Shown: positions 2,667 to 4,890, counted from the first letter of the stretch. The stretch: DNA of 5,177 nucleotides from a virus (IMGVR_UViG_3300045988_037122:1-5177), one strand, 5' to 3'. Made by a program: numbers and translations. Notes: generated by a model not told the origin, from the letters alone.

Positions 2667-3338
2667 ATGAATAATGATCAACTTACTGCACAGCTTTCCA
2701 ACATTGCTTCGCAAAATACTGCTAAGTCTCAAGAATTTGCTCGTGAAGAAATGCGTTTCAATGCTTCCGAAGCACAAAAAAATAGAGACTGGCAAGCTCA
2801 ACAGTCTGCAACCGCTCATCAAAGAGAAGTTCTCGATCTTCAAAAAGCAGGACTTAATCCTGTTCTTAGTGCTGGCGGCTCTGGTGCTCAAACTGGATCC
2901 GGTGCGACTGCATCCGGTGCCAAAGGTGAAACTGATAATTCCGTTGTGCCTGCATTGACAAGTATTATTGTCAATCAGCAGAATAATGCGAATCAACAAG
3001 CTATTGCTCAGATGCAGCGTGATGCTACTTTAGAAGCTGCTCGCATTCATCAAGCTACAGCTTTACAAGCTGCTAATATTCAAGCCGAAGCGTCTCGGTT
3101 CGCTAGTCTTAATTCTGCGAATGCTTCCCGGTATGCTGCTAATTTAGGTTATGCTAGTTCTCGTTATGCTTCTCAGATGGGATTAGCAGGTACTAAGTAT
3201 TCTAGTAATAAGAGTTCTGGTGCGTCTCGTTATGCAACTAAAGTGAATTCCAAGACCGCTAAACGTGGTCAAAATATGAGTTTAATCGGTTCACTTGCTG
3301 GTTCTGCTGCTGGACTTTTAGGACGTATTTTCGGGTAG
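2667..3338 (+). CDS. VP2: Minor capsid / DNA pilot protein VP2 (gokushovirus VP2-like), 223 aa.
   Basis: RBS AAAGGAG (2655-2661) lies 5 nt before ATG 2667. The N-terminal block EFAREEMRFNASEAQKNRDWQAQ....AHQREVLDLQKAGLNPVL matches the conserved VP2 motif of gokushoviruses. The middle is Gln/Ala-rich and coiled-coil-like, and the C-terminus is hydrophobic (MSLIGSLAGSAAGLLGRIFG). The ORF-track start 2616 is GTG inside the hairpin and is unlikely. Confidence 0.8.
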   Translation: MNNDQLTAQLSNIASQNTAKSQEFAREEMRFNASEAQKNRDWQAQQSATAHQREVLDLQKAGLNPVLSAGGSGAQTGSGATASGAKGETDNSVVPALTSIIVNQQNNANQQAIAQMQRDATLEAARIHQATALQAANIQAEASRFASLNSANASRYAANLGYASSRYASQMGLAGTKYSSNKSSGASRYATKVNSKTAKRGQNMSLIGSLAGSAAGLLGRIFG

Positions 3339-3349
3339 CCGTTACCTAA

Positions 3350-3380
3350 GTGCCCATTACCTACTTGATGTAATGGGCAC
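3350..3380. other. Perfect 11-bp stem (gtgcccattac / gtaatgggcac) with a 9-nt loop CTACTTGAT, 12 nt after the VP2 stop. This is a candidate replication-origin or structural hairpin.
   Basis: All 11 pairs checked by eye. There is no downstream U-run, so it is not a canonical intrinsic terminator. Confidence 0.7.
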
Positions 3381-3405
3381 GACTGACACCAAAAAAACAT
3401 CTGTA

Positions 3406-3441: not shown

Positions 3442-3470
3442 TTGACTTTTTATTTCCTGTGTAATATAAT
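3442..3470 (+). promoter_or_regulatory. Near-consensus sigma70-type promoter: -35 TTGACT (3442-3447), 17-nt spacer, -10 TATAAT (3465-3470). It drives the HTH gene and probably Rep.
   Basis: Hexamers and spacing read directly from the sequence. A TGTAAT direct repeat (3460-3465 and 3470-3475) flanks and overlaps the -10. Confidence 0.6.
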
Positions 3471-3500
3471 GTAATCAATTAGAGAAAGGAGTTGTTACAT

Positions 3501-3755
3501 ATGACAAAATTTAAAGTTAAAGTTACGTCACATGGAATTAGAGAGAGTCTTGGTATGAGTCAATCAAAGTTTGCTACTACCTTTTGTATTCCGGTTAATA
3601 CCGTTCGGAATTGGGATAGTAAAAGCTGTATGCCTTACTATGTTTTTAGGCTCTTTAATCTTGTTATTGATTATGTTCCTCGAGAATATCTTGAACAAAT
3701 GTATAAGTGTGAGAAAGAAATTGATGATATTGTAAAAAAAGCCGACATCCATTGA
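3501..3755 (+). CDS. Small XRE-family helix-turn-helix protein (HigA/MqsA antitoxin-like HTH), 84 aa. This is an accessory gene that is not part of the canonical gokushovirus set.
   Basis: RBS AAAGGAG (3485-3491) lies 9 nt before ATG 3501. The segment IRESLGMSQSKFATTFCIPVNTVRNWDSKSCMP fits the XRE HTH pattern (R..LG.SQ..FA..FGIP..T...WE.G...P). The downstream tail A..L...I.YVP resembles small HigA-type proteins. The ORF-track start 3492 is TTG. Confidence 0.7.
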   Translation: MTKFKVKVTSHGIRESLGMSQSKFATTFCIPVNTVRNWDSKSCMPYYVFRLFNLVIDYVPREYLEQMYKCEKEIDDIVKKADIH

Positions 3756-3765
3756 TATCGGCTTT
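3738..3765 (+). promoter_or_regulatory. Hairpin spanning the HTH stop codon. The pairing is aaagccga(c)at / at(a)tcggcttt around a 6-nt loop. It is a possible attenuator or weak terminator between the HTH gene and Rep.
   Basis: 8 bp plus 2 bp separated by one mismatch, with flanking A-run and T-run. Only 3 T follow the stem. Rep RBS AAAGGAG starts at 3773. Confidence 0.35.
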
Positions 3766-3787
3766 GTCCACAAAAGGAGATTGTTAT

Positions 3788-4810
3788 ATGGCTTGCTTTC
3801 ATCCTATGCGTGGTGCGTATACTAATGTTAAAACATCTAATGGAAAAAATCAAGTTAAAGTTTTTCCTGTTGCTACTACTGGTAACAAATATGTGTATCA
3901 GAATCGTTCGAATTCTGATTCTTTTGTTTGTTCCGATCATGAATTTGATACTGGTAACTGGAAACGTTTGGAAACATTTTCTATTCCTTGTGGCAAATGT
4001 ATTGGTTGCCGTCTTGATTATTCCCGTCGTTGGGCAACTCGACTGATGCTTGAGTTGCAGTGTCATACAAGTGCATTTTTTGTTACGCTTACTTATGACG
4101 ATAACCATATCAATCGCGGTGATAAGATTGCTTATACTCTTGTGAAAAAAGATGTTGTTGACTTTATGAAGCGTCTACGTAAAGAACAATCACAAAGATG
4201 TGATACAAAAATTCGGTTTTATTGTGCTGGTGAATATGGTACTGATACTCACCGTCCGCACTATCATTTGATTTTATTTGACTGGATTCCTCCAGAAGGT
4301 GATCTTGTCTTTTTGAAAAATAGCTTTGCTGGTAATAAATATTGGTATAGTCTTACTCTTAATAAATTATGGGAAAATGGCTATAATGTAGTTGCTGATG
4401 TTACATGGAAGAGTTGTGCTTATGTTGCTCGGTATATGTTGAAAAAGCATAAAGGTGTTGATGCTGATATTTATGATGATCTCGGGATTGTTCCGGAATT
4501 TTCTACTATGTCTCGTATGCCTGGTATCGGCAAAGAATATTATGATGTGCATTCAAAAGAGATGCTTGATCTTGGATATGTCCAGATGCCGGATGGTCTT
4601 ACTGCTCCTGTACCTCGTTATTTTGATCCGTTTTTTGAGCGTGATTATCCAAAAGAGTTTGATAAAATGTCGAATGATCGTGTCCAGACTGCTAAAATGT
4701 TGCAAGCTATTAAAGAGTATTCGACTGAGTTAGATTATTTTGAGCAGCTTGAGATTGATGAACAGAGTAAATTATTTAAATCTAAAATGTTAATTCGTCC
4801 AGATATTTAG
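3788..4810 (+). CDS. VP4: Replication initiation protein (Microviridae VP4 / gene A-like HUH rolling-circle endonuclease), 340 aa.
   Basis: RBS AAAGGAG (3773-3779) lies 8 nt before ATG 3788. RCR motif I is FFVTLTYDD (aa 97-105). Motif II is HRPHYHLILF (HuH at aa 158-160). Motif III is the double tyrosine YVARYMLKK (aa 212-220), compare phiX174 A YVAKYVNKK. A Cys knuckle CGKCIGC is also present. The ORF-track start 3752 is TTG. Confidence 0.93.
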   Translation: MACFHPMRGAYTNVKTSNGKNQVKVFPVATTGNKYVYQNRSNSDSFVCSDHEFDTGNWKRLETFSIPCGKCIGCRLDYSRRWATRLMLELQCHTSAFFVTLTYDDNHINRGDKIAYTLVKKDVVDFMKRLRKEQSQRCDTKIRFYCAGEYGTDTHRPHYHLILFDWIPPEGDLVFLKNSFAGNKYWYSLTLNKLWENGYNVVADVTWKSCAYVARYMLKKHKGVDADIYDDLGIVPEFSTMSRMPGIGKEYYDVHSKEMLDLGYVQMPDGLTAPVPRYFDPFFERDYPKEFDKMSNDRVQTAKMLQAIKEYSTELDYFEQLEIDEQSKLFKSKMLIRPDI

Positions 4811-4862: not shown

Positions 4863-4890
4863 TTGACAATACCCCCCCCGGGTATACAAT
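4863..4890 (+). promoter_or_regulatory. Strong sigma70-type promoter: -35 TTGACA (4863-4868), 16-nt spacer containing a C8 tract and a CCCGGG site, -10 TACAAT (4885-4890). It is the likely promoter for the J-like, VP5, VP3 and VP1 gene block.
   Basis: Consensus -35 and a one-mismatch -10, read directly. Located in the 110-nt non-coding region upstream of the AAAGGAG RBS at 4905-4911. Confidence 0.55.

Follow-up and report, generated by a model that had tools for sequence, protein, structure and literature searches.

Microviruses are described in textbooks as relying on constitutive promoters and terminators that are read by the host; to our knowledge they have no regulators of their own in this picture, and we know of no phage-encoded transcription regulator described in them. 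The locus examined here raises the question of what a small helix-turn-helix (HTH) gene with a promoter of its own is doing between the pilot protein gene (VP2) and the replication initiator gene (Rep, or VP4) of such a phage. The stretch of DNA that was analyzed, referred to throughout as the window, comprises 5,177 bases, and comparison of its ends revealed a 55-base terminal overlap, indicating that the genome is circular and complete at 5,122 nt. It belongs to a small gut ssDNA phage with the gene set of a gokushovirus, in which every gene lies on the + strand, and the inventory of ORFs in this 5.1-kb genome (VP8, VP5, VP3, VP1, VP2, HTH and Rep; Table 1) is complete. No integrase, partition or maintenance gene and no toxin gene was found among these ORFs, the neighbors of the HTH gene being VP2 and Rep, and an Rfam search gave no relevant match. 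The HTH gene sits in the 450-nt interval between VP2 and Rep, with 32 nt separating its stop codon from the Rep start codon. The initial annotation had described a separate 84-aa XRE HTH gene between VP2 and Rep, and all of these elements were found in place, VP2 ending at 3338 and Rep starting at 3788.

Table 1. Features of the window, in coordinates of the 5,177-base stretch.
Feature	Position	Strand	Basis or remark
Scaffold protein VP3		+	Pfam Chlamy_scaf
Capsid protein VP1		+	Phage_F, E = 2.6e-145
Pilot protein VP2	end at 3338	+	PHROG pilot families
Probable origin hairpin, 11-bp stem, loop CTACTTGAT	3350..3380	+	Perfect inverted repeat; conserved
Sigma-70-type promoter P_HTH, TTGACT-17-TATAAT	3442..3470	+	11/12; tied best in genome
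Candidate operator TAATGTAATCAATTA, 15-bp near-palindrome	3467..3481	+	Pattern match and motif-HTH co-occurrence; binding inferred
HTH-gene ribosome-binding site, AAAGGAG	3487..3493	+	Read in the sequence; 7 nt before the ATG; kept in all relatives
Gene for 84-aa XRE-family HTH protein	ATG 3501..TGA 3755	+	Homologues, dN/dS, profiles, AlphaFold, fold matches
Stop-codon stem-loop	~3738..3765	+	Might weakly attenuate transcription, or affect mRNA stability, between HTH and Rep
Rep ribosome-binding site, AAAGGAG	3773..3779	+	Read in the sequence
Rep (VP4), replication initiator	3788..4810	+	Pfam REP_ORF2-G2P, E = 6.6e-20; PHROG 942, E = 3e-106
VP8-position basic protein, 37 aa	4921-5034	+	Position and annotation of related records
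VP5-position ORF, 98 aa	spans circular junction	+	Position and annotation of related records

The HTH ORF is a real gene under selection. A database search recovered 32 clusters of homologues (53-94% identity), in nearly all of which the longest contig is ~5 kb or a shorter fragment, and the alignment showed an almost unchanging stretch of 60 aa at the N-terminus and a variable tail at the C-terminus. The dN/dS of the gene was 0.04, 0.09 and 0.21 against three close genomes and 0.29-0.46 against the next clade, values that are within the range of the core genes. An alternative start codon (TTG 3492) was proposed by the ORF finder and is less likely because the homologues begin at the position equivalent to the ATG.

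For comparison, 21 microvirus genomes or fragments with the HTH gene were assembled; all encode a Rep with 64% or more identity to that of the window, and the HTH gene is always located between VP2 and Rep. The gene is present in >20 complete metagenomic genomes and is thus lineage-wide rather than a one-off insertion. The 2,189 GenBank phage records that encode a homologous Rep include just two with a detectable HTH homologue, both of them Dulem virus 137 (Rep identity 72%, compared with 42% for the next-best record), and the homologue there (XCD04540.1; PP511473) is labelled "hypothetical protein". In the comparison with related gokushoviruses that the initial annotation had proposed, the nearest ones without the HTH gene (bajarodmic virus 95, OP549876 and Dulem virus 146) have either a short (78-nt) VP2-Rep spacer or unrelated small ORFs. 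Its description of the gene as unusual cargo holds against deposited genomes, but the gene is a conserved feature of its lineage.

The protein is an XRE-type HTH protein, an assignment for which the single 84-aa sequence is insufficient and which is established by profiles. In scans of Pfam, PHROGs and NCBIfam, the single sequence fell below every curated family cut-off: Pfam HTH_3 (PF01381) scored 15.2 bits, short of its 23-bit cut-off (E = 0.022), the best NCBIfam match was VC1465/XafT (23.9 bits against 70; E = 3.2e-5), and NadS (22.5 against 60 bits), MqsA (TIGR03830; 19.5 against 61.8) and YiaG (18.3 against 110) were likewise sub-threshold, the TIGR03830 match covering no more than positions 73-121 of the model, its HTH portion. 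The Pfam search that had been proposed as a check therefore failed for the single sequence, but homology at the profile level overturned this outcome. A profile of the HTH family matched the XRE protein Atu1735 (2ppx; E = 3e-5), the joint profile of the wider family matched it at E = 1e-9, and an exhaustive profile search collected, at E < 0.001, the representatives of 800 clusters, most of them 60-120 aa long. HTH_3 was matched by 30 of 50 distant relatives (best E = 7e-17), and the same 50 relatives matched the NCBIfam models NadS (37), XafT (35), MqsA (34), YiaG (29) and RstR (17). A first AlphaFold model built from close homologues only reached a pLDDT of 67, and a Foldseek search with it gave no significant match. 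With a 94-sequence alignment, the pLDDT rose to 89.2 and the model showed five helices in a compact fold with the helix-turn-helix at helices 2 and 3. The HTH core spans approximately residues 10-58 and is followed by a variable C-terminal helix (61-82), and the putative recognition helix (TVRNW) hardly varies.

The initial annotation had called this protein antitoxin-like, with a HigA/MqsA-like tail. The best structural matches do include HigA2 and MqsA, together with Aca10, Aca2 and Aca1, and the HTH core resembles Aca repressors, Cro, a plasmid Cop protein, RstR, YiaG, NadS, XafT and HigA/MqsA equally. The fold-level likeness to HigA/MqsA is thus real, but it is no closer than the likeness to phage and plasmid repressors and is limited to the generic HTH core, while the tail is a variable helix that gave no antitoxin-specific match.

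The promoter P_HTH is present and conserved in position. Promoter-like sites of all grades were no more frequent in the genome than expected by chance (15 found, 14.2 expected). At a score of at least 11/12, in contrast to a mean of 0.084 + strand sites per genome in 1000 dinucleotide shuffles, the window has two, both in non-coding spacers outside genes (P(>=2) = 0.003). The second, equally high-scoring site (TTGACA-16-TACAAT, 4863-4890) lies in the other large non-coding spacer. A promoter scoring at least 10/12 with a 17-nt spacer was found 24-49 nt before the HTH start codon in 13 of the 21 related genomes, and P_HTH itself is identical in L002, L007 and L008. The consensus promoter that the initial annotation had assigned to the gene was confirmed. 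It has been lost in L005, and it is absent from one sub-clade (L003, L009-12, L046 and L047), in which a terminator-like hairpin precedes the HTH gene and the only consensus promoter lies after Rep, accompanied by weak look-alikes of the motifs described below; any autoregulation in that clade would have to act elsewhere. No consensus promoter was found between HTH and Rep in the window or in L004, the two genomes that were scanned for one; in the window, the + strand from 3470 up to the Rep start holds no promoter-like site.

The candidate operator TAATGTAATCAATTA shares its first bases with the final 4 nt of the −10 box and extends over the region in which transcription would start. The corresponding pattern, TRATKKAATCARTYA (also T[AG]AT[GT][GT]A-A-TCA[AG]T[CT]A), was derived from microvirus promoter regions only. 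At 0 mismatches it has a single match in the window, at the promoter, and in 78 loci no exact match falls anywhere but directly in front of an HTH gene. Four RepL-type plasmid contigs (L017, L048, L052 and L053), which played no part in deriving the pattern and whose HTH homologues are 46-52% identical to the window protein, each carry two tandem copies of the motif straddling the −10 box. Altogether, 419 kb in 58 loci from outside the microvirus lineage contain 8 matches, compared with 0.035 expected by chance. Since the four plasmid contigs are related to one another, they amount to one or two independent confirmations rather than four, and the sharing of the motif between plasmid and microvirus cassettes may in part reflect common descent rather than constraint.

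Among the other motif-bearing loci, two copies are present in each of L004, L006 and L018 at a distance of 22 bp, one in the promoter spacer and one just after the −10 box, the spacer copy of L006 being a perfect 7+1+7 palindrome, and L001 has a single copy in the promoter spacer. The copy in the window is single and palindromic at only 5/7; no perfect inverted repeat of at least 5 bp was found in the promoter of the window, and the second promoter (4863-4890) has no copy of the 15-bp motif. A further sub-clade (L020, L024 and L049-51) carries another palindrome in the corresponding position, ATGTT-N3-AACAT, whose arms reach 9 bp, and the same palindrome adjoins the promoter of the HTH homologue in an inovirus-like contig (L014). 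Overall, the 15-bp motif is a candidate operator to which the HTH protein may bind, and the co-occurrence of motif and family supports sequence-specific DNA binding by the window protein indirectly.

Two further points concern these promoter sequences. The TGTAAT direct repeats to which the initial annotation had drawn attention are present (3460-3465 and 3470-3475), but only in the sub-clade of the window, and the second forms part of the longer 15-bp motif, which explains it; the repeats were therefore rejected as the operator. In addition, the putative recognition helix TVRNW is almost invariant although the putative operators differ by sub-clade, an observation contrary to simple co-variation of protein and DNA.

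Upstream of the promoter, the spacer that contains the hairpin at 3350-3380 gave z = −4.4 when folded as DNA, and ACTTGATGTAA occurs exactly once in every related genome. In 14 distinct relatives, 98% of the cells of the aligned stem are paired, with compensatory changes in 5 of the 11 pairs; none of 500 shuffles reached the observed paired percentage or the covariation score, and controls in which the stem was slid collapsed. The loop matches the origin of phiX174, AACTTG^ATATTAAT (annotated rep_origin 4306). This hairpin is therefore probably the nicking site of Rep and the viral-strand origin, as judged from its conservation and its loop. The HTH cassette always adjoins the hairpin, on either side of it: the cassette lies 3' of the hairpin in the clade of the window and in the L009 clade, and ten other genomes have it on the 5' side, after VP2 and before the hairpin. 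In the 3' arrangement, the gap between the HTH stop codon and Rep is 17-36 nt, and the HTH gene is upstream of Rep in every related genome. Between the clade of the window and the L009 clade, dS is ~1.0-1.45 for HTH and Rep, above the ~0.17-0.85 of VP1, VP2 and VP3, indicating that the replication module has a history separate from that of the structural module.

A hairpin spanning the HTH stop codon had also been described, and it does exist, although it is modest. Its arms (3730-3749 and 3754-3773) are 80% complementary, the stem of the RNA extends over ~3738-3765, the centroid energy of the RNA is −13.7 kcal/mol, and its minimum free energy gave z = −2.0, with 8 of 200 shuffles folding equally well. 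Only the three closest relatives retain it, and among them the 5-bp core GCCGA/TCGGC is invariant. As it has no proper T-run, was not called by the terminator scan, has weak statistics and is not conserved more widely, it was rejected as a terminator.

Distant homologues of the HTH gene also adjoin replication genes, namely microvirus Rep (L018 and L020), Rep_OBD together with Zot (L014) and RepL (L017). The HTH cores of L004 and L018 are 62-66% identical to the plasmid proteins and 50-52% identical to that of the window, and this greater proximity to the plasmid proteins suggests that the cassette has been exchanged across replicon types, namely between gokushoviruses and other small replicons. 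Because the motif or the palindrome lies beside the HTH homologues on the plasmid contigs and on L014 as well, promoter, operator and gene appear to travel together, and by this sequence evidence they form one portable cassette. A search of PLSDB plasmids recovered no homologue of either the window protein or its plasmid-type counterpart, and alignments of both HTH and Rep recovered no prophage or integrated copy from 185,579 representative genomes.

Taken together, these results lead us to favor, with reasonable but far from complete confidence, a model in which the XRE HTH protein represses its own promoter and thereby throttles the HTH-Rep operon, and with it the Rep gene beside it. P_HTH would drive a two-gene operon, HTH followed by Rep. 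When the incoming single strand has been converted to duplex DNA in a cell that contains no repressor, the near-consensus promoter would fire and a quick burst of Rep would be made, since the repressor is initially absent. As the HTH protein builds up, it would bind TAATGTAATCAATTA, probably as a dimer, and block RNA polymerase, so that HTH and Rep are both held at a low steady level; the overlap of TAATGTAATCAATTA with the −10 box and the start site suggests repression by occlusion. That the protein represses rather than activates, that HTH and Rep are co-transcribed, and the timing of these events are all inferred. Among the roles put forward in the initial annotation, an early regulator of Rep expression is thus the one that the evidence favors.

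A second reading, which we regard as unlikely, is that the protein is a maintenance or immunity repressor that keeps the phage as a quiet persistent episome (a carrier state or plasmid-like prophage) or blocks superinfection, acting through the replication operon, the main promoter or both. The cassette also occurs on plasmids, relatives of the protein score on the models of the CTX-phage repressor RstR and of Phage_CI_repr, and in the L009 clade an operator look-alike (3 mismatches) lies in the sole strong promoter, which would serve the whole genome; these points agree with such a role. However, the 5.1-kb genome has no integrase, partition or maintenance gene, not one prophage copy was found in the 185,579 representative genomes, and the second promoter of the window carries no motif. 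Taken further, this line of thought would credit the gokushovirus lineage with an acquired plasmid-type replication-control cassette, also present in RepL-type plasmids and in inovirus-like elements, by which it throttles Rep and persists, unintegrated and immune to superinfection, in a carrier state or as an episome of controlled copy number; we put this forward as a speculation with a small chance of being right. As to mechanism, the immunity repressor and the autorepressor overlap, and they differ only in biological purpose.

Since the HTH gene always adjoins the origin hairpin, the protein might instead be an accessory factor that binds at or near the hairpin and modulates nicking or loading by Rep, in place of or besides any effect on transcription. 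The origin loop TGATGTAA does fit the left half of the operator pattern, but a half-site match of this kind has a chance probability of ~0.05 by our rough estimate, the full copies of the motif are located at promoters and not at the origin, and the plasmid homologues carry the motif at their own promoter. We consider such a role improbable.

Still less credible is a part in counter-defense, either as an antitoxin mimic that neutralizes an abortive-infection toxin or as an Aca-type regulator of a counter-defense gene. The structural matches to HigA2, MqsA and the three Aca proteins, the sub-threshold NCBIfam matches to MqsA and NadS, and the extra small ORF that lies between HTH and Rep in L051 could be read in this way. 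The similarity, however, is limited to the generic DNA-binding core: both the Zn-finger domain of MqsA and the toxin-neutralizing N-terminal segment of HigA2 are missing from the window protein, which in the AlphaFold model has only 9 residues before helix 1 of the HTH. PADLOC returned zero matches for the protein, the genome has no toxin gene, and Rep is the only gene downstream in the window, leaving no acr candidate; the conserved DNA motif, moreover, points to a DNA-binding role. With no toxin gene, no toxin-binding module and no match in the defense database, membership among the antitoxins was rejected, and the protein is probably not an antitoxin; the anti-defense mimicry suggested in the initial annotation is very improbable for the same reasons.

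Some gokushoviruses integrate at dif, and the best single-sequence NCBIfam match was VC1465/XafT, a model also matched by 35 of the 50 relatives, but we give almost no weight to a XafT-like activator of Xer recombination that promotes phage integration at the host dif site, and rejected it, because the score is far below its cut-off, the relatives score equally well on the NadS, MqsA, YiaG and RstR models, the window has 0 matches to a dif-like site with up to 3 mismatches, its best matches to four dif sequences are within the shuffle range, and no integrated relatives were found in the 185,579 genomes.

If the autorepressor model is correct, a selected regulator with its promoter and operator wired to Rep would add a regulatory layer to the microviruses. 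A global survey of microviruses reported accessory genes of two kinds only, methyltransferase and lysis/peptidase genes, and stressed genetic isolation, with gene exchange with hosts or across microviral families nearly absent (PMC9239249). Against this background, a regulator whose core is, in some microviruses, nearer to plasmid versions than to those of other microviruses, together with an operator that appears to travel with it, offers a concrete case of microviruses and plasmids exchanging a module. Should the improbable episome reading be true, it would mean a regulated, plasmid-like lifestyle in a family thought to be free of regulators and isolated from other mobile elements. In practical terms, the locus offers a specific protein-DNA pair that is cheap to test, and it allows a widespread "hypothetical protein" to be annotated.

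The closest known counterpart in a deposited genome, XCD04540.1 of Dulem virus 137, is a true homologue, with 54% core identity and the same position between VP2 and Rep, although its cassette lies on the opposite side of the origin hairpin from that of the window. In the gokushovirus Microvirus-AZ-2020, a small ORF with a predicted DNA-binding product has also been reported shortly before Rep (PMC9584320); it was rejected as a homologue, having no detectable sequence similarity to the window protein, and the searchable full-text literature contained no closer account of an XRE protein, repressor or regulator in microviruses. In terms of fold and sequence, the protein shares with the 'NWE-G-P' subgroup of XRE proteins (Atu1735/2ppx, the C-terminal domains of HigA2 and MqsA, YiaG, NadS, XafT and RstR) the signature SQ-x-FA-x5-P-x2-T(V/L)-x-NW(D/E) and the five-helix fold. 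The family has, however, a motif of its own, NWD-x-(K/R)-x-CMP-x-Y, that lies outside every curated model, and the window protein comes with no partner toxin, Zn domain or dif site. Aca repressors shut down strong phage promoters through inverted repeats in the promoter (PMC6765145, PMC9410881). Like Aca10, Aca2 and Aca1, the window protein is a small HTH protein of a mobile element encoded at a strong promoter, and the overlap of the motif with the −10 box would be compatible with a similar action. In contrast, aca genes follow an acr gene, whereas here HTH is the first gene after the promoter and only Rep comes after it; the window protein also has no Aca2_YdiL Pfam match and is only 15-22% identical to the Aca proteins in sequence.

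The closest parallel in organization is the replication control of plasmids. In pMV158, the origin adjoins the copG-repB operon. As in that operon, and in CopB-repA of R1, the gene of a tiny repressor comes just before that of an HUH-type rolling-circle initiator. The copG and repB genes are co-transcribed from the promoter Pcr, which is repressed by CopG (PMC2724298, PMC5717011), and the window has the corresponding layout at the level of sequence architecture: P_HTH, HTH, 32 nt and Rep, with no promoter in between and with the motif at the −10 box, so that one promoter would serve both genes and be occluded by the repressor. The behavior expected by analogy is also that of CopG-repB, a burst of Rep on entering a repressor-free cell followed by shut-down. 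CopG is a ribbon-helix-helix protein and the window protein has an all-helical XRE fold; it is therefore an analogue and not a homologue, and unlike the CopG-repB plasmids, the replicon here is a lytic-type virus with capsid genes. In all, the gene is best read as a previously unannotated example of the familiar small autoregulated HTH repressors of mobile elements, an ordinary type of regulator.

When the window was compared with L003 and L009-L012, which belong to one microvirus sub-clade, we found that the HTH gene and Rep had dS values of ~1.0-1.45, whereas those of VP1, VP2 and VP3 were ~0.17-0.85. This mosaic of dS values indicates that recombination has taken place between the replication module and the structural module.

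The region around the HTH gene and Rep also varied in gene content and arrangement among the related loci. In L051, in which the HTH stop codon is separated from Rep by ~355 nt, an additional ORF of ~70 aa that has a ribosome-binding site of its own lies between the origin hairpin and Rep, and only the 3' remnant of this ORF was found at the equivalent position of L001. Small accessory genes have a hot spot in the spacer between the origin and Rep. In L005, a clean deletion upstream of the HTH gene has removed the HTH promoter together with the first operator copy, and in L047 the spacer and the terminator-like hairpin on that side of the gene are duplicated in tandem; the deletion and the duplication point to rapid rearrangement in this region.

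The promoter-operator-HTH cassette, in which the operator is a candidate, is common to microviruses with two motif copies (L004-type) and to L017, L048, L052 and L053, which are small, RepL-type, plasmid-like contigs of 3-5 kb from gut metagenomes that share a conserved 325-aa protein. Since no homologue was found in PLSDB, this plasmid family is uncultured. Among the distant relatives of the HTH protein recovered by the exhaustive profile search, P0033, P0035, P0041 and P0061 are proteins of 500-800 aa with 5-8 tandem copies of the window-type HTH unit, an unusual architecture.

Further features of the window, with their coordinates.
Feature	Window positions	Location or character
12-nt tandem repeat	602-648	encodes the PDPKPDPNPDPVP tail of scaffold protein VP3
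35-aa strongly hydrophobic ORF MGGLLFAMFFLILMDLGINIYSLVLIASDYRKDGE	671-778	overlaps with the end of VP3 and the beginning of VP1
Terminator-like hairpin and large inverted repeat	2530-2557 and 2568-2643	VP1-VP2 spacer
Hairpin with loop CTACTTGAT	3350-3380	co-varying stem, invariant loop
Stretch GACTGACACCAAAAAAACA	3381-3400	directly 3' of the loop CTACTTGAT hairpin
Second near-consensus promoter TTGACAATACCCCCCCCGGGTATACAAT	4863-4890	3' of Rep

The short hydrophobic ORF in the structural-gene region, which has a gene call in several relatives, is a candidate for a membrane or lysis peptide. The inverted repeat of the VP1-VP2 spacer has arms of 36 nt with 83% complementarity, and the structure in this spacer may be a terminator or may serve in complementary-strand priming. 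The sole Rfam match of the window also fell in this spacer, a sub-threshold match to a plant miRNA model that we dismissed as noise. The promoter downstream of Rep has a palindromic spacer centred on a run of 7-9 C and is kept across divergent clades with a variable length of the C run (spacer of 14-17 nt); it could be a further regulatory site or a length-variable promoter.

The hairpin at 3350-3380, which precedes the HTH gene in the window, was present in one copy per genome in all relatives. To our knowledge, the viral-strand origin of gokushoviruses has not been mapped experimentally. We consider this hairpin to be probably that origin, because its loop matches the nick site of the phiX174 origin.
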